Virus record (IMG/VR): IMGVR_UViG_2740892233_000010
Origin: a virus
Taxonomy: Duplodnaviria > Heunggongvirae > Uroviricota > Caudoviricetes
Reading direction: 5' to 3' (one strand)
Length of the DNA stretch: 5,244 nt
The first letter of the stretch is position 1; each line of letters begins with the position of its first letter. The notes beneath the pieces are model-generated. The model was given only the letters and a program-made list of their open reading frames with translations, searched no databases and was not told the DNA's origin. A program made the position numbers and the translations under genes. Below are positions 923-5,244 of this stretch, in pieces.

Positions 923-1004
923 GAAACAACACTTTTGTGGCAAAGCATGGTGCCGGGTGCCTCCCGGTGAATTCAGTATCAGCACCTGAATNNNNNNNNN
1001 NATT

Positions 1005-1029
1005 GCCCGAACCCATTCGGGCATTTTTT
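1005..1029 (+). terminator. Intrinsic terminator (plus strand)
   Basis: Perfect hairpin GCCCGAA-CCCA-TTCGGGC (1005-1022) followed by ATTTTTT (1023-1029). Confidence 0.6.
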
Positions 1030-1490: not shown

Positions 1491-2098
1491 CTGGTGATTC
1501 TCCAGACGAAGACCCAGAACACCGGCAATCTCTTCCAGCACCTTGCGCTCTTCCGGCTCAATTTCGCCGTCTGCCTCCGCAATGGCCACCGCCACATCCA
1601 GCACATCTTCCGCTTCACGCGTATCGTGTTTCACATCCTCGATCTCACGTAACGCCGCACGACGACCAATTTTAAAGTTCGTATCCAGCTGACCGATAAT
1701 GGTTGCGCTAATCGCATTAATTTCTGACGTAAACGCGGACAGCGCAGGCTGATTACGCAGTACCTGTTCGATCTTCGCTTTCTAGGAAGCCTCACATTCA
1801 CCATCTGCANNNNNNNNNNAATCTCGCGTAACGCGGCACGACGACCAATTTTAAAATTGGTATCCAGCTGACCGATAATAGTTGCGCTAATCGCATTAAT
1901 TTCCGAGGTAAACGCAGACAACGCAGGCTGATTACGTAAGACCTGTTCGATCTTCGCTTTCTCGGATGCCTCGCATTCACCATCTGCATAGGCCACCAGG
2001 TATGCAGCGTTAATCACCGCCTGTGCCAGATCGCGTTTCTCAAACTTTTTAATTTCCGCTGCCGCTCTGCGGGTTTTCTTTTTGAAGATTCCAAACAT
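1487..2098 (-). CDS. TerB-family (tellurite-resistance TerB-like) protein, about 143 aa once the artefactual duplication is removed
   Basis: ATG at 2098-2096 with AGGAA 7 nt upstream; stop TGA at 1489-1487. Protein: MFGIFKKKTRRAAAEIKKFEKRDLAQAVINAAYLVAYADGECEASEKAKIEQVLRNQPALSAFTSEINAISATIIGQLDTNFKIGRRAALREIEDVKHDTREAEDVLDVAVAIAEADGEIEPEERKVLEEIAGVLGLRLENHQ. The two acidic ADG/SDG-containing helical repeats match the TerB pattern as I recall it. The literal span includes a duplicated 169-nt segment plus 10 N (1641-1819), which shifts the frame. Confidence 0.85.
1641..1988. repeat. Diverged tandem duplication (169 nt x2) flanking a 10-N run (1810-1819) inside the TerB-like gene
   Basis: 1641-1809 vs 1820-1988 differ at about 12 positions. 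Translated in the TerB frame all differences are synonymous except one: the left copy has TAG (plus 1782-1784, ctagga) where the right copy encodes Glu (ctcgga). Confidence 0.9.
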
Positions 2099-2230
2099 CG
2101 TGACGTTCCTTTGGGTGGGTGAGCCAACGCCCGGGAGCGATCTGCCCACAGAGAAAGTCACACTGACCACTCCGTAAGCTCACCCCCGAAAGGCTCTGTG
2201 GTTGATATGCGCCGGGCGTGGCGCAGATAC

Positions 2231-2254
2231 AAAAAAGGCCCGCCGAAGCGAGCC
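2231..2254 (-). terminator. Intrinsic terminator downstream of the tRNA cluster (minus strand)
   Basis: Minus-strand RNA GGCUCGC-UUCG-GCGGGCC (7-bp stem with one G-U pair, UUCG tetraloop; plus 2237-2254) followed by U6 (A-run 2231-2236), 14 nt after the tRNA-Arg(UCU) 3' end. Confidence 0.65.
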
Positions 2255-2267
2255 TGGAAAATAAGTG

Positions 2268-2344
2268 TGGCGCGTTGTAGTGGAGTCGAACCACTGACCG
2301 ATTGCTTAGAAGGCAATTGCTCTGTCCGACTGAGCTAACAACGC
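2268..2344 (-). tRNA. argO: tRNA-Arg (anticodon UCU)
   Basis: Manual cloverleaf: GCGTTGT-TA-GCTC(D)-GAGC, anticodon stem ATTGC/GCAAT, loop CTTCTAA (anticodon TCT), T-arm with GGTTCGACTCC, acceptor 3' ACAACGC, discriminator G, CCA encoded. 77 nt. Symbol assigned from position in the ileZ-argN-argO trio. Confidence 0.85.
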
Positions 2345-2357
2345 ATGATGCTGATAA

Positions 2358-2434
2358 TGGACCGCCATCGGGGACTTGAACCCCGCGCAGCCAGCTTCGA
2401 AGGCTGGCGCTCTGTCCCGATGAGCTAATGGCGG
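2358..2434 (-). tRNA. argN: tRNA-Arg (anticodon UCG)
   Basis: Manual cloverleaf: acceptor CCGCCAT/ATGGCGG (C1-G72), D-stem GCTC/GAGC, anticodon stem CCAGC/GCTGG, loop CTTCGAA (anticodon TCG), T-arm CGGGG-TTCAAGT-CCCCG, discriminator T, CCA encoded. 77 nt. Isotype read from the anticodon only. Confidence 0.8.
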
Positions 2435-2443
2435 TATGTGATA

Positions 2444-2519
2444 TGGTGGCCCTTGCTGGATTTGAACCAGCGACCTGGCGATTATGAGTCGCTCGCTCTC
2501 ACCACTGAGCTAAAGGGCC
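2444..2519 (-). tRNA. ileZ: tRNA-Ile2 (anticodon CAU, lysidine type; formally could be tRNA-Met)
   Basis: GGCCCTTTAGCTCAGTGGTGAGAGCGAGCGACTCATAATCGCCAGGTCGCTGGTTCAAATCCAGCAAGGGCCACCA, 76 nt. Perfect acceptor stem GGCCCTT/AAGGGCC, anticodon loop CTCATAA. Very close to E. coli ileX as I recall it. Confidence 0.85.
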
Positions 2520-2547
2520 GAGCCAAAAAATAATAATCAGATGAAAA

Positions 2548-3261
2548 TCAATAATCAAGCCCTTGCCTGGATACATATCTGTCTGGCGGGAAGCCATAAT
2601 AGCGGTGAAATACAGAAATAAAGTAGGACCTGCTTGAATAACCGCATTTTTCTGCTATAGCCTGTCCATATCCATGCCGGGAACATAACATATTTACAGC
2701 AACACGCATCCGCTCTTCCAGCAACAAGCGACTGAACATGCCCCCTTCATTTTTCAGTTTTGTCTTTAACAAACTCTCACTCATATGCAACTGTAGAGCA
2801 ATCGCACCAAGCGTCCAGCTTGCTGATATATCTGTCTGAATTATCGCCCTGACTTTGGCACTTATGCTGGATAAACATCCACTTAAAAACAATGACATCC
2901 GTTCATCTGTTTCAAACAGAGACAGGCAGGCCATCATAAGAAACATATCCGTGGCCTCTCCGGAAAATCCCTGGCTGGTAATTAAAGCCGCAGCCAACGC
3001 AGGATTGTTGGGTTCCAGCAACAGGTAAAGCGGAATGTCAGTCAGACGAGTCCTCGTCAGCTTATGCTGACTTTCCAGATATTGACTTACGACGGATTCG
3101 CTTATATCGACAATTTTAACTTTGCCATAATGCATAAGGAAAAGCTCCCTGATGCATTTGGTGGCCAGAACGACTGAGCCTGGCTTAAGTGACAACGTAT
3201 CCTTTTCAAGAAAAATATTAATTGGGGAGCAAACCATGATAACTGAACAGACAACAGCCAT
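2548..3261 (-). CDS. AraC/XylS-family transcriptional regulator (AppY/GadX-like), prophage-borne
   Basis: 237-aa ORF from ATG 3261 to TGA 2548-2550. C-terminal double HTH (WTLGAIALQLHMSESLLKTKLKNEGGMFSRLLLEERMRVAVNMLCSRHGYGQAIAEKCGYSSRSYFISVFHRYYGFPPDRYV). N-terminus MAVVCSV resembles AppY (MDYVCSV). Gene is visibly AT-rich and uses rare codons (manual count 5 ATA, 5 AGG, 1 AGA). Exact identity (PatE/Psr-like?) not resolved. Confidence 0.88.
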   Translation of the reverse strand: MAVVCSVIMVCSPINIFLEKDTLSLKPGSVVLATKCIRELFLMHYGKVKIVDISESVVSQYLESQHKLTRTRLTDIPLYLLLEPNNPALAAALITSQGFSGEATDMFLMMACLSLFETDERMSLFLSGCLSSISAKVRAIIQTDISASWTLGAIALQLHMSESLLKTKLKNEGGMFSRLLLEERMRVAVNMLCSRHGYGQAIAEKCGYSSRSYFISVFHRYYGFPPDRYVSRQGLDY

Positions 3262-3296
3262 TATAATTTTACTTTCATTAGCAATTGGTTAGCTCA

Positions 3297-3327
3297 ATTA
3301 TAGCCCCAAAAGGTAAATTATCATCAA
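3297..3327 (-). promoter_or_regulatory. Candidate sigma70 promoter for the AraC-family gene
   Basis: Minus-strand consensus -10 TATAAT (plus 3297-3302) with a TTGATG -35-like hexamer (plus 3322-3327), 19-bp spacer, about 35 nt upstream of ATG 3261, in an AT-rich leader. Spacer is longer than optimal. Confidence 0.3.
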
Positions 3328-3381
3328 CACATAAGCAAAGGACTGACAGGTGTCGCCCCCCCACCAGCCGCCCATTCACCA

Positions 3382-3409
3382 CAAATAAAAAGCCTTCAGG
3401 ACTGAAGGC
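3382..3409 (-). terminator. Intrinsic terminator overlapping the stop of the small upstream ORF (minus strand)
   Basis: Hairpin GCCTTCA-GGAC-TGAAGGC (3392-3409) followed on the minus strand by UUUUUAUUUG (plus A-run 3382-3390). The stop TGA (3398-3396) lies in the stem. Confidence 0.55.
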
Positions 3410-3593
3410 GTCTGTAACAACCGCACTGATAGTCTGCCAGACCCGCCATAACAAGCTGGGTCAGTATTAACTGGCAGCGTTCGCGTGAAAGGTAAGTATT
3501 CTGCGCAACCTCCCCGACTGTCGCCGGTTCGGTAACGCTTAATTCATTAAACACCACTCTGGCGGTTTCGGTCATATCCTGCTGTTTCAGCAT
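3396..3593 (-). CDS. Small putative winged-helix DNA-binding protein (PapI/FaeA-like), about 65 aa
   Basis: ATG at 3593 with AGGGA 7 nt upstream. MLKQQDMTETARVVFNELSVTEPATVGEVAQNTYLSRERCQLILTQLVMAGLADYQCGCYRRLQS. The layout (leader, TVGEVAQ...SRERCQLILTQLVMAGL helix pair) resembles PapI (…[30 protein letters not shown]…) as recalled. The longer ORF-track start at 3716 is a GTG inside the terminator U-tract and was not used. Confidence 0.5.
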   Translation of the reverse strand: MLKQQDMTETARVVFNELSVTEPATVGEVAQNTYLSRERCQLILTQLVMAGLADYQCGCYRRLQS

Positions 3594-3716
3594 GTCTTTT
3601 TCCCTTTTTCGGTTAACGTGACACACCAATAACTCTTGTCGAAAAAGCCAGCAAGCTGAAAGAACGGTATTAATAACCACCAGCGAATTTATTGCGCTGC
3701 TGTATATTACGGACAC

Positions 3717-3737
3717 AAAAAAACCACCTTCCGGTGG
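3717..3737 (-). terminator. Strong intrinsic terminator about 100 nt downstream of Q (tR'-like)
   Basis: Minus-strand RNA CCACC-GGAA-GGUGG (plus 3724-3737) followed directly by U7 (A-run 3717-3723). Confidence 0.7.
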
Positions 3738-3834
3738 CTTCCTTGTGCGAAAAAACTTGCATTTCGCCTCGCGATACAGCTTTGCGAAGCTTACAGGAAT
3801 TCAAGCTGTTTCTGCGTAAAAAAGCAAGCTTTTT
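3738..3834 (-). promoter_or_regulatory. Candidate Q-dependent late promoter (pR'-like) and qut region
   Basis: Positional inference only: the interval between the Q stop (3835) and the tR'-like terminator is where pR' and the qut site sit in lambdoid phages. Only weak hexamers visible (e.g. TTGCTT ... TTGAAT); not pinned down. Confidence 0.25.
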
Positions 3835-4377
3835 TTATCGAAATGAATCGTGCATAGGTACATAAAGCATGTGTTCAGCCACGGCTAACCAACCTGCAAT
3901 ACGTTTCTCACATGTGCTGAAACACCATTCCGGGTGAGTACGATTTAAACATTCTGCCATTTTTCTCTTACTCATTCCCCGTCCTTCGTACCTTTGCCGG
4001 AGAATATTGATTAGCCCGGGATATTCCCCAAGCACCTCACTGATAACGCGATCAATAATCAACGCCTCTGTGTCTGTACAATGTGACAACCAGCTCTTCT
4101 GCTTCCCTCTGGTCATATCCCGAAAAAATGCCTCAAGTTCCGGTTTTTCCAGCCCGGATTTCTTCATGCTGCGTAAAACCTCATTAACTGCTGTTTTCGT
4201 CAGCTTTTTCGAAACCAGTAACCGGTTAAACATATTTCCGGATTTACCCCCACCGATATACGACCACCGCCCCCACATCCGTAATTTCCCCTGGATCCAG
4301 ACTGCTTCCAGCGTGTTCAGGCGTAAATGTTCGCCGCTTTTGCCTGTAATTTCCGGATATATCATATTTACGCTCAC
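3835..4377 (-). CDS. Late-gene antitermination protein Q homolog (QuuD/933W-Q type)
   Basis: 180-aa ORF just downstream of rusA, overlapping its stop (GTGA at 4374-4377; alternative ATG at 4365). N-terminal WGRW motif and C-terminal region (ALIIDRVISEVLGEYPGLINILRQRYEGRGMSKRKMAECLNRTHPEW) line up with recalled DLP12 QuuD/933W Q (ERWGAWA...AMIICGCMARL...). Followed by a short leader and strong terminator. Confidence 0.7.
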   Translation of the reverse strand: MSVNMIYPEITGKSGEHLRLNTLEAVWIQGKLRMWGRWSYIGGGKSGNMFNRLLVSKKLTKTAVNEVLRSMKKSGLEKPELEAFFRDMTRGKQKSWLSHCTDTEALIIDRVISEVLGEYPGLINILRQRYEGRGMSKRKMAECLNRTHPEWCFSTCEKRIAGWLAVAEHMLYVPMHDSFR

Positions 4378-4733
4378 TCACTCTCAATTTTGTAAATCTT
4401 CACACCCAGCCGTCCACCAGATACTGGCTGACCGCGCACAATATTGATTTCATCAAACTGCTCGTCATCAATGAGCACTTCCGCATGCGTCAGCGCATCC
4501 AGCGGTGCTTTCAGAATGTTGTCCAGGTCACGGCGGCGCTTATCCGGTGGCTCTGCAATCACCTTTATCGCCAGCCTTCCGGACAGGCTTAATTTCAGCC
4601 GCTGCTGGCGAACAATAAGCGCCACAGCCCGGCGATAACGCTTTCCCTCCTCCGAGATAAAATATGTGCTGCCACGGCGTCGCCAGTAAGTGTTCACCGT
4701 CGGCGGGTAAGGTAAAACCAAATCTATGAGCAT
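4374..4733 (-). CDS. rusA: Holliday-junction resolvase RusA
   Basis: ATG at 4733 with strong SD (AAGAGGTGA) 5 nt upstream. MLIDLVLPYPPTVNTYWRRRGS...EGKRYRR...PPDKRRRDLDNILKAPLDALTHAEVLIDDEQ...GGRLGVKI shares the PDRRRRDLDN, DALT, DD.Q and GGRL blocks with E. coli RusA. Confidence 0.9.
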   Translation of the reverse strand: MLIDLVLPYPPTVNTYWRRRGSTYFISEEGKRYRRAVALIVRQQRLKLSLSGRLAIKVIAEPPDKRRRDLDNILKAPLDALTHAEVLIDDEQFDEINIVRGQPVSGGRLGVKIYKIESE

Positions 4734-4745
4734 CAGTCACCTCTT

Positions 4746-5201
4746 TTACCCAAGCACGCCAGTTGCAAAGGCGTGATCAAGAAAACGAAAAATTAAATCA
4801 ACCTGAGAACCATGCTTTTCTTCGAACGCCAGCGGATCCGCATGAAGCTCGTTGTGATGCTCCCGACACAGCGGTAGCGTGAAAATATCGTGAGATTTTG
4901 TCCCCATTCCCCCCTGACCATGACCAATCAGGTGATGCGGATCGTCAGCAGGCTTACCACAACACGCACACGGCTGTGTCTTCACCCAGTGCGTGTATTT
5001 CTCGTTAACCCAGCGGCGACGTTTAGGTCGTTTCATGAAAGATTCCGGAGACTCAGGATCAACGGCAATGCTGACCACCGTCTTTTCCTGTGGCGGTTTT
5101 TGCTGGTGAGCGTGAGGCAGCGGCGCAAGATTTTTTGTGCGCTGCTTCAGTATGCTGGTGGCGGTCTGCTCTCCCGGTACGATGTCGCTTTCACGGTACA
5201 T
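4746..5201 (-). CDS. DUF1364/YbcO-like nin-region protein (Cys/His-rich, putative nuclease); start uncertain
   Basis: C-terminal 96 aa (from ATG 5036: MKRPKRRRWVNEKYTHWVKTQPCACCGKPADDPHHLIGHGQGGMGTKSHDIFTLPLCREHHNELH...) parallel DLP12 YbcO in length and Cys/His spacing. The frame stays open upstream to the window edge; ATG 5201 overlaps an upstream-frame stop, so the start may be 5036, 5201, or outside the window. Stop TAA at 4748-4746, 12 nt before the rusA start. Confidence 0.7.
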   Translation of the reverse strand: MYRESDIVPGEQTATSILKQRTKNLAPLPHAHQQKPPQEKTVVSIAVDPESPESFMKRPKRRRWVNEKYTHWVKTQPCACCGKPADDPHHLIGHGQGGMGTKSHDIFTLPLCREHHNELHADPLAFEEKHGSQVDLIFRFLDHAFATGVLG

Positions 5202-5244
5202 TGAGCGGATTTTTTCCGCACGCAACCCCAGCGAACGACGTAAT
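5191..5244 (-). CDS. 3' end of an unidentified upstream nin-region ORF (partial)
   Basis: A second minus-strand frame is open from the window edge and ends ...ITSFAGVACGKNPLNVP-TGA at 5193-5191, overlapping ATG 5201 of the next gene. Only 17 codons visible; no homolog recognised. Confidence 0.25.
   Translation of the reverse strand: MTSFAGVACGKNPLNVP

Follow-up and report, generated by a model that had tools for sequence, protein, structure and literature searches.

Two genes for DNA-binding-type proteins lie side by side in the late leader of a lambdoid prophage, and the question is whether they form a regulatory pair. The locus is part of a stretch of 5,244 nucleotides, here called the window (IMG/VR virus record IMGVR_UViG_2740892233_000010, Caudoviricetes). 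An original prediction, made from the letters alone, described an AraC-family regulator and a PapI/FaeA-like small protein, inserted as AT-rich cargo between the terminator tR' and the phage tRNAs. Both open reading frames (ORFs) are present and real (AraC gene, 2548-3261; small ORF, 3396-3593; both on the minus strand), and so is their place in the late leader. The proposed pairing fared less well. We consider it very probable, as one joint judgement, that the AraC gene is a psr allele of the PsrB type known from O157:H7 enterohemorrhagic Escherichia coli (EHEC), and that the small ORF, which encodes 65 amino acids (aa), is an unrelated phage backbone neighbor with no dedicated role as a Psr partner.

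Identity of the AraC-family gene

By its predicted C-terminal double helix-turn-helix (HTH) domain in Pfam, the 237-aa product of the AraC gene is an AraC/XylS transcription factor. HTH_AraC matched it in two stretches (E value, 2.4e-13; 50.3 bits, cut-off 26.6), and HTH_18 matched residues 155-230 (39.8 bits, cut-off 33.6). The names of its protein clusters are generic, and none carries the label Psr. The protein is identical at 234 of 237 residues (98.7%) to the AraC protein of prophage CP-933O (OI-57) in strain EDL933, from which it differs by A103V, H196Y, and I202V. It shares 215 of 237 residues (90.7%) with a second O157 allele, and the two O157 alleles are also 90.7% identical to each other.

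The closer EDL933 copy (99.3% nucleotide identity) is at 1,905,274-1,905,987 of NZ_CP008957.1. It is flanked by genes for DUF968, RusA, DUF1133, the 65-aa ORF, tRNA-Ile, tRNA-Arg, TerB, DUF3927, and NanS-p, with PerC, tail genes, three NleG effectors, and ydfJ further on. This prophage, which ends with three NleG effectors beside ydfJ, is CP-933O/OI-57. Reviews place psrB (z2104) in OI-57/CP-933O and describe PsrA and PsrB as AraC/XylS regulators that are 90% identical and restricted to prophages that carry effector loci and Pch regulators (PMC10877973, PMC8565820). Therefore, the position in OI-57, the 234/237 match, and the agreement between the 90.7% inter-allele identity and the published 90% all point to a PsrB-type allele in the window. 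The association with Pch and effectors was seen as well: the O26 prophage described below carries a PerC-family gene, the EDL933 and F8092B prophages carry PerC and three NleG genes, and in Sakai Sp4 pchA adjoins the other psr allele. The window itself ends short of such genes.

A lambdoid prophage of E. coli O26:H11 11368 matches the window from 1820 to 5244 at 100% identity, and window segment 2400-3900 occurs at 100% identity in at least 25 complete genomes, including named O26, O103, and O45 strains. The AraC gene, the 65-aa ORF, and their flanks all lie within the clean, N-free part of the window. On the minus strand, the genes run as a truncated DUF968, rusA, a DUF1133-type Q, the 65-aa ORF, AraC, three tRNAs, TerB, and DUF3927. 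The order from DUF968 through NanS-p to PerC/Pch is common to O26, EDL933, and F8092B. The genes that matter here are as follows:

4374-4733, minus strand: rusA.
3835-4365, minus strand: Q-like late antiterminator gene (DUF1133/Phage_antitermQ), which marks the start of the late leader (start as in RefSeq for O26 11368).
3396-3593, minus strand: gene for a small HTH protein of 65 aa, phrog_331 (function unknown), a conserved phage backbone gene.
2548-3261, minus strand: putative psrB-type gene for an AraC/XylS-family regulator of 237 aa (WP_000301785.1).
2268-2519, minus strand: tRNA genes ileZ (CAT), argN (TCG), and argO (TCT), from ARAGORN and the Rfam tRNA model, with names from the Sakai annotation.

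The Q-like gene matched Pfam DUF1133 (E, 1e-110), Phage_antitermQ (E, 1.4e-8), and phrog_753, "anti-termination protein Q-like" (E, 4e-74). The tRNA genes (Ile-CAT, Arg-TCG, Arg-TCT), which had been expected downstream, form the downstream boundary of the cargo slot.

Thus, the gene is essentially a copy of a characterized prophage regulator in the same gene order, and by sequence the AraC regulator and its neighborhood are already known. This is in substance the outcome that the original prediction had named as its own refutation. PsrA and PsrB share with it the family, the C-terminal HTH, and the length, and PsrB also shares its flanks (DUF1133 Q, 65-aa ORF, ileZ/arg tRNAs, TerB, DUF3927, and NanS-p) and the presence of a Pch (PerC-family) regulator in the prophage. 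The differences are the three substitutions in the window allele and the prophage type: the window belongs to the non-O157 EHEC type (O26, O103, O45), with three tRNAs, whereas two accompany PsrB. Comparison with other known regulators, which the original prediction had proposed, gave far more distant relatives. PatE (z0321, OI-8/CP-933H), YdeO, GadX, and AppY have the same family and overall architecture, but identity to the CP-933H AraC protein (PatE by position) is 37% over 235 aa, and the window protein falls below every NCBIfam equivalog cut-off, although it aligns to the YdeO model over its full length (E, 4e-31). The location of PatE differs too, at the end of its prophage and outside the late leader. 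According to a review, one and the same segment of the hdeA promoter is the target of both PatE and PsrB.

Prophage AraC-like regulators that rewire acid-resistance and virulence regulons were brought up in the original prediction, and the comparison with Psr places this gene among them. As summarized in reviews (PMC10877973, PMC8565820), through which the studies of Tree et al. 2011 and Yang et al. 2015 are known here, PsrA and PsrB bind AT-rich promoters and activate gadE, yhiF, and hdeA. They activate gadE and hdeA directly, raise GadE/YhiF levels and glutamate-dependent acid resistance, and indirectly repress LEE type III secretion. Given the near-identity of the proteins, the published PsrB function would carry over to the window allele.

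BLASTN placed the AraC gene at 1444 sites in 830 of 5426 complete E. coli genomes. All of these sites except one (1443) are chromosomal, and 793 genomes have the ORF intact and at full length. O157:H7 strains have two copies, with 99.3% and 94.4% nucleotide identity to the window.

The psr cassette and its candidate transcription signals

The sites that define the cassette and its surroundings are listed here in the direction of transcription:

3713-3752, minus strand: tR'-like hairpin plus U7 between Q and the 65-aa ORF (core CCACC-GGAA-GGTGG, 3737-3724).
3383-3409, minus strand: intrinsic terminator of the 65-aa ORF, GCCUUCA-GUCC-UGAAGGC + UUUUUAUUUG, overlapping the stop codon.
2524-3359, minus strand: variable slot of 836 bp, occupied here by the psr cassette with its promoter region and gene, bounded by BLASTN breaks against loci L007 and L008.
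3297-3324, minus strand: candidate sigma-70 promoter of the AraC gene, ATGATA-16-TATAAT, with 10 of 12 consensus matches.
2530-2558, minus strand: promoter-like TTGATT-17-TATTAT, overlapping the AraC 3' end (last codons).
2236-2255, minus strand: first strong terminator after the AraC gene, beyond the third tRNA (stem of 8 pairs, 6 of which are GC, and a T-run).

Loci L007 and L008 are prophages of Shiga toxin-producing E. coli (STEC). In BLASTN, two window segments matched them and nothing between did: 3360-3725, with the 65-aa ORF, the terminator of that ORF, and the leader as far as the first terminator, and 2337-2523, with tRNAs. In the corresponding slot of these prophages (L007 2338-3396; L008 1924-2982), a DNA methyltransferase gene replaces the AraC gene between the 65-aa ORF and the tRNAs. 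Because homology to these related phages stops at 3360 and resumes at 2523, with the methyltransferase between, the comparison supports psr as a separately acquired, discrete cassette. Its end is within 25 nt of the stop codon. Separate acquisition had been suggested for both genes. It holds for the AraC cassette (2524-3359) and not for the small ORF, which is in the conserved backbone segment 3360-3725.

GC profiling gave a similar division. The AraC gene (44.0% GC) and the spacer upstream of it (41.0%) are AT rich, as had been claimed, but the 65-aa ORF is not (51.5%, with 49.8% for the window). Of the flanking genes that were said to contrast with the cargo, rusA (52.8%) and TerB (50.1%) do, and the Q-like gene is itself at 46.0%.

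The psr cassette shows presence, absence, or replacement among homologous phages together with deviating base composition, as a moron does. It resembles other lambdoid morons of the Q-to-lysis region (stx, the AraC-like genes of 1H12/ev099, and the Dam-type methyltransferase of Stx phages) as a discrete cassette between backbone genes that comes, goes, or is exchanged among related phages, is lower in GC, and brings a promoter-like site of its own. However, the definition of a classic moron includes its own terminator, and none was found after the window AraC gene. Further downstream, both L007 and L008 have a psr-like gene with 69% identity, preceded by the 3' fragment of a methyltransferase gene and by a TolA-like gene, at the position where stx lies in Stx phages. 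The homology of this psr-like gene to the window begins about 70 bp upstream of the ATG, which again points to a mobile unit of promoter and gene.

A promoter with a consensus TATAAT had been proposed for the AraC gene. The candidate is present at 3324-3297, 36 nt upstream of the ATG, and four alleles share its -10 unchanged, with TATACT in that place in the 69% homologue. Promoter-like sites in the region numbered 3, with 2.8 expected by chance, so this promoter call rests on position and conservation, not on the count.

Each gene had also been credited with its own terminator. This is true of the 65-aa ORF, where a hairpin and U-run at 3409-3392 (7 pairs, 4 of them GC; centroid, -10.5 kcal/mol) is conserved in psr alleles and in the methyltransferase-carrying phages. 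For the AraC gene no convincing terminator was found: 2520-2580, which takes in the 3' end of the gene and the 28 nt from its stop codon to tRNA-Ile, folds no better than shuffled sequences (z, +0.93), and the sole scan match in this stretch is a stem of 5 bp that lacks a T-run. The first strong terminator, at 2236-2255, has a folding energy of -15.6 kcal/mol (z, -3.4).

The -10 hexamer of TTGATT-17-TATTAT ends 10 nt before the first base of tRNA-Ile, and methyltransferase phage L007 has TTGCAG-17-TATTAT (3397-3432) with its hexamer ending 9 nt before tRNA-Ile. The window site is probably the promoter of the tRNA cluster, and the two sites together suggest a conserved tRNA-cluster promoter that is partly supplied by whichever cargo is present. 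Expression of the tRNAs solely by cotranscription from the psr promoter is weakened by this TATTAT, conserved 9 to 10 nt before tRNA-Ile with both cargo types, and read-through from psr into the tRNAs is likely as well.

The tR' assignment upstream fits a strong hairpin plus U7 at 3752-3713 (minimum free energy, -23.9 kcal/mol; z, -5.3; 0 of 200 shuffles as stable). Its A-rich 5' arm pairs with the U-tract (CACAAGGAAGCCACC/GGUGGUUUUUUUGUG), giving a 16-bp stem that is terminator-like on either strand. A pR' promoter was not located convincingly between the Q stop codon and this first terminator, and an Rfam scan of 2520-3834 found no known RNA family inside.

The 65-aa ORF and alternative explanations

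The small ORF had been described as PapI/FaeA-like. The 65-aa protein did not match the FaeA/PapI family PF04703 at an E value of 0.1 or lower, nor did any of 22 family members at 1 or lower. A profile search of Protein Data Bank (PDB) sequences returned nothing significant, with no PapI or PefI at an E value of 10 or lower. There was no Pfam match above the curated threshold and none in NCBIfam. Weak matches to DprA_WH, TrmB, and MarR_2 were all below threshold for the 65-aa protein. NCBI calls some copies "TrmB family," but TrmB (PF01978) scored 17.8 bits with a cut-off of 25.6, and its best E value among the 22 members (3.3e-4) was poorer than that of DprA_WH (6.8e-6). By these scores, the TrmB match is a generic winged-helix-like signal only.

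The AF2 model (pLDDT, 86.5; pTM, 0.72) has a three-helix HTH core and a fourth, C-terminal helix, with no beta wing. In a Foldseek search of the PDB, the best E value was 0.39, and there was no hit at 0.001 or lower. The neighbors were generic winged-helix DNA-binding domains (IclR-type PcaR, Z-alpha of ADAR1, MarR, ArsR, and IscR). The PapI-family protein PefI (2jt1) ranked 9 (E, 1.2; TM, 0.65/0.60), behind IclR-type and Z-alpha domains. The likeness to PapI, FaeA, and PefI consists of a similar size (65 versus about 70 to 77 aa) and an HTH core, which in PefI superposes on the model at 1.8 Å over 51 columns. However, there is no sequence-family match, the model ends in a helix where the known proteins have a beta wing, scores at least as good come from IclR, Z-alpha, MarR, and ArsR domains, and the ORF is in a phage late leader, not a fimbrial operon. 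In O26 11368, there are no fimbrial genes within 9 kb on either side. Because PF04703 is not matched and the structural neighbors are generic, "PapI-like" says no more here than "small HTH protein."

The protein belongs to phrog_331 (E, 8.3e-37; 126 bits; residues 1-64 on profile positions 35-98). In a large protein collection it has 293 homologues, from Escherichia, Salmonella, Klebsiella, Citrobacter, and Buttiauxella, with 77 to 98% identity. Of the 5426 complete E. coli genomes, 2798 have the ORF with its terminator, at 5124 places in all, and the ORF is also present in 57 phage records, among them Stx2a, Stx2c, and Stx2d phages, phiP27, SfV (orf47), cdtI, mEp460, and Klebsiella, Morganella, and Providencia phages. 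A literature search under its old locus tags returned nothing relevant. It is a common, conserved protein, and nothing in this analysis points to an unusual role. The gene is always just upstream of the cargo slot, whether this holds psr, a Dam-type methyltransferase, tRNAs, or stx, and directly behind Q and a tR'-like terminator. An unrecognized late-leader regulator that binds DNA or RNA polymerase and tunes read-through into the cargo or toxin region might occupy such a place, but we regard this as very unlikely. If it were true, Stx2 would come under the tuning in those phages that have psr, the tRNAs, and stx2 next to one another.

Distribution is what separates the two genes. The 65-aa ORF is at about 3.5 times as many places as the AraC gene (5124 versus 1444) and occurs in phages without it, so the two do not appear to be a pair, and the suggestion of a regulator pairing not matched to any described system falls away. 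A close Psr is present in only 1 of the 57 phage records, phiSTEC1575-Stx2k. In O157:H7, the 65-aa ORF beside the Sp4-type psr is frameshifted while psr is intact (L005 11667-11863; L011, which is Sakai Sp4, 3667-3906); RefSeq has this copy as a "TrmB family" pseudogene in Rafaela_II, and in Sakai the stretch is read as another ORF, of 240 bp. Lambda-like phages carry AraC morons (39% identity) between Q and the holin gene, and no 65-aa ORF adjoins these.

A dedicated two-component module, with the 65-aa winged-helix protein as a PapI-like co-regulator of AraC and both acquired together as AT-rich cargo, would explain why the genes are adjacent and co-oriented in O26, EDL933, F8092B, Rafaela_II, Sakai Sp4, and STEC409, and PefI is among the structural neighbors. 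However, besides the distribution, the frameshift next to an intact psr, the absence of any PF04703 match in the family, and the difference in GC content, an intrinsic terminator lies between the genes, homology to the methyltransferase phages spans the 65-aa ORF and its terminator but not the AraC cassette, and the distant AraC homologues (69% nucleotide identity in L007/L008; 39% aa identity in 1H12) lack the 65-aa ORF as an immediate neighbor. By distribution the module is largely refuted, and we give it little chance.

The AraC gene might instead be a decaying, nonfunctional remnant in a cryptic prophage, with no regulatory role in the strain. Many EHEC prophages are defective, the window protein has three substitutions relative to O157 PsrB, and deletion of psrB alone had little effect on O157 secretion (PMC10877973, PMC8565820). 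Decay is hard to reconcile, however, with an ORF that is intact in 793 genomes and 100% identical in the O26, O103, O45, and other genomes noted above, and with a conserved promoter-like -10. According to a review, secretion is repressed by PsrB in trans, and the protein binds the promoters of hdeA and gadE and increases survival in acid. We therefore see a remnant as highly improbable.

The remaining alternative concerns the 65-aa frame itself. Family members from Salmonella, Klebsiella, Citrobacter, Buttiauxella, and Scandinavium have 77 to 90% identity, the family has 24 invariant columns, including ERCQLILTQLV-AG and two cysteines, and further homologues with 44 to 51% identity are found in cdtI, mEp460, Morganella, and Providencia phages. 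Conservation starts sharply at the ATG at 3593, and the N-terminal extensions are unrelated between genera; therefore, the 65-aa reading is a real gene. A 106-aa extended frame (GTG at 3716) was rejected, as its extension is not conserved across genera. An AAGGGA Shine-Dalgarno-like motif is 8 nt upstream of the 65-aa ORF. The idea that the ORF is a chance frame in structured noncoding late-leader RNA between two terminators can draw on its usual annotation as a hypothetical protein, the lack of Pfam and NCBIfam matches, and the differing starts of gene callers (63- to 106-aa forms), but this conservation, the Shine-Dalgarno-like motif, and the confident model make it the least probable of all.

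Several points weigh against the combined PsrB-type and backbone-gene interpretation. The equation of the EDL933 gene with z2104 and PsrB comes from its genome position and the 90% figure. The published psrA site (z1789, OI-50/CP-933N; PMC10877973, PMC8565820) does not match the current EDL933 and Sakai assemblies. At that position (OI-50/CP-933N in EDL933, locus L004, 1625000-1674999; Sp6 in Sakai, locus L002), no AraC gene follows Q, and just 127 bp of leader homology is present. The 90.7% allele was found in CP-933M/Sp4, beside pchA (EDL933 1266008-1266721; Sakai ECs_1087). Either the original assembly was chimeric there or the island assignment in the literature is outdated, and this mismatch leaves some uncertainty in the naming of the two O157 alleles. 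Two of the three substitutions are in the DNA-binding half of the protein, and the target specificity of the window allele is assumed to be that of O157 PsrB. The AraC promoter and the read-through into the tRNAs are predictions. Finally, the 65-aa ORF is immediately upstream in all four close psr alleles examined, and this constant adjacency leaves formal room for a functional link. We explain the adjacency by the site of insertion, because the cassette landed in the slot directly behind the backbone gene.

Expression, recurrence, and significance

With psr taken as a PsrB-type cassette behind a backbone gene, its sigma-70-type promoter would allow Q-independent expression in the lysogen. As the cassette has no terminator, transcripts would probably continue into ileZ-argN-argO and stop at the terminator behind them. 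After induction, by analogy with lambdoid late operons, Q-modified RNA polymerase starting at pR' would read through the two upstream terminators and psr. The 65-aa gene, which lies between the tR'-like terminator and its own terminator whatever cargo follows, would most likely be expressed from the late transcript only.

A 92%-identical psr is found directly upstream of ileZ-argN-argO and stx2AB in an Stx2e/i/l/k-type prophage (STEC409, L009 5001-7324) and in phiSTEC1575-Stx2k (OQ243220.1, 16748-17458). In these phages, a terminator-less, constitutively promoted psr could in principle send transcription toward the toxin genes. Phage 1H12 (L012, 40556-46703) and about 15 other lambda-like phages have AraC genes with 37 to 39% identity to Psr in the interval from Q to the holin gene, where other cargo alongside them includes a Blc lipocalin and a YbgA-like gene. 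Judging from this recurrence in lambda-like phages, late-leader AraC morons therefore appear to be a theme that reaches beyond EHEC.

Left of 1820, about a third of the window consists of contig pieces chained through runs of ten Ns (230-239, 611-620, 856-865, 992-1001, 1229-1238, and 1810-1819). In O26 11368 coordinates, adjacent pieces overlap by about 50 to 170 bp and show a few percent divergence, as expected of paralogous prophage alleles, and these overlaps create artificial sequence duplication. The joins break the TerB ORF (1488-2098). The same region holds a full-length match to the STnc100 small RNA family (RF02076; 1030-1219, minus strand; 147.8 bits; E, 7e-34). A partial copy and a match to AgvB (anti-GcvB) that stays below threshold (35.8 bits, cut-off 56) lie beside it, at 953-1025 (minus) and 965-1029 (plus). 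In L007 and L008, the same unit of about 190 bp is repeated at least five times at a spacing of about 260 to 270 bp, within the unannotated 1.9 kb upstream of nanS-p (L007 5999-7368).

Three points of the analysis are modestly useful. The cassette now has exact boundaries (836 bp, with a promoter but no terminator, alternating with a methyltransferase). The 65-aa ORF can be read as phage backbone and not as a co-regulator. The published map position of psrA disagrees with current assemblies. Psr proteins tie prophage carriage to acid survival and to the control of type III secretion in EHEC. This link has already been published for O157:H7, and the window only adds a nearly unchanged copy of the gene from the corresponding prophage of non-O157 EHEC.

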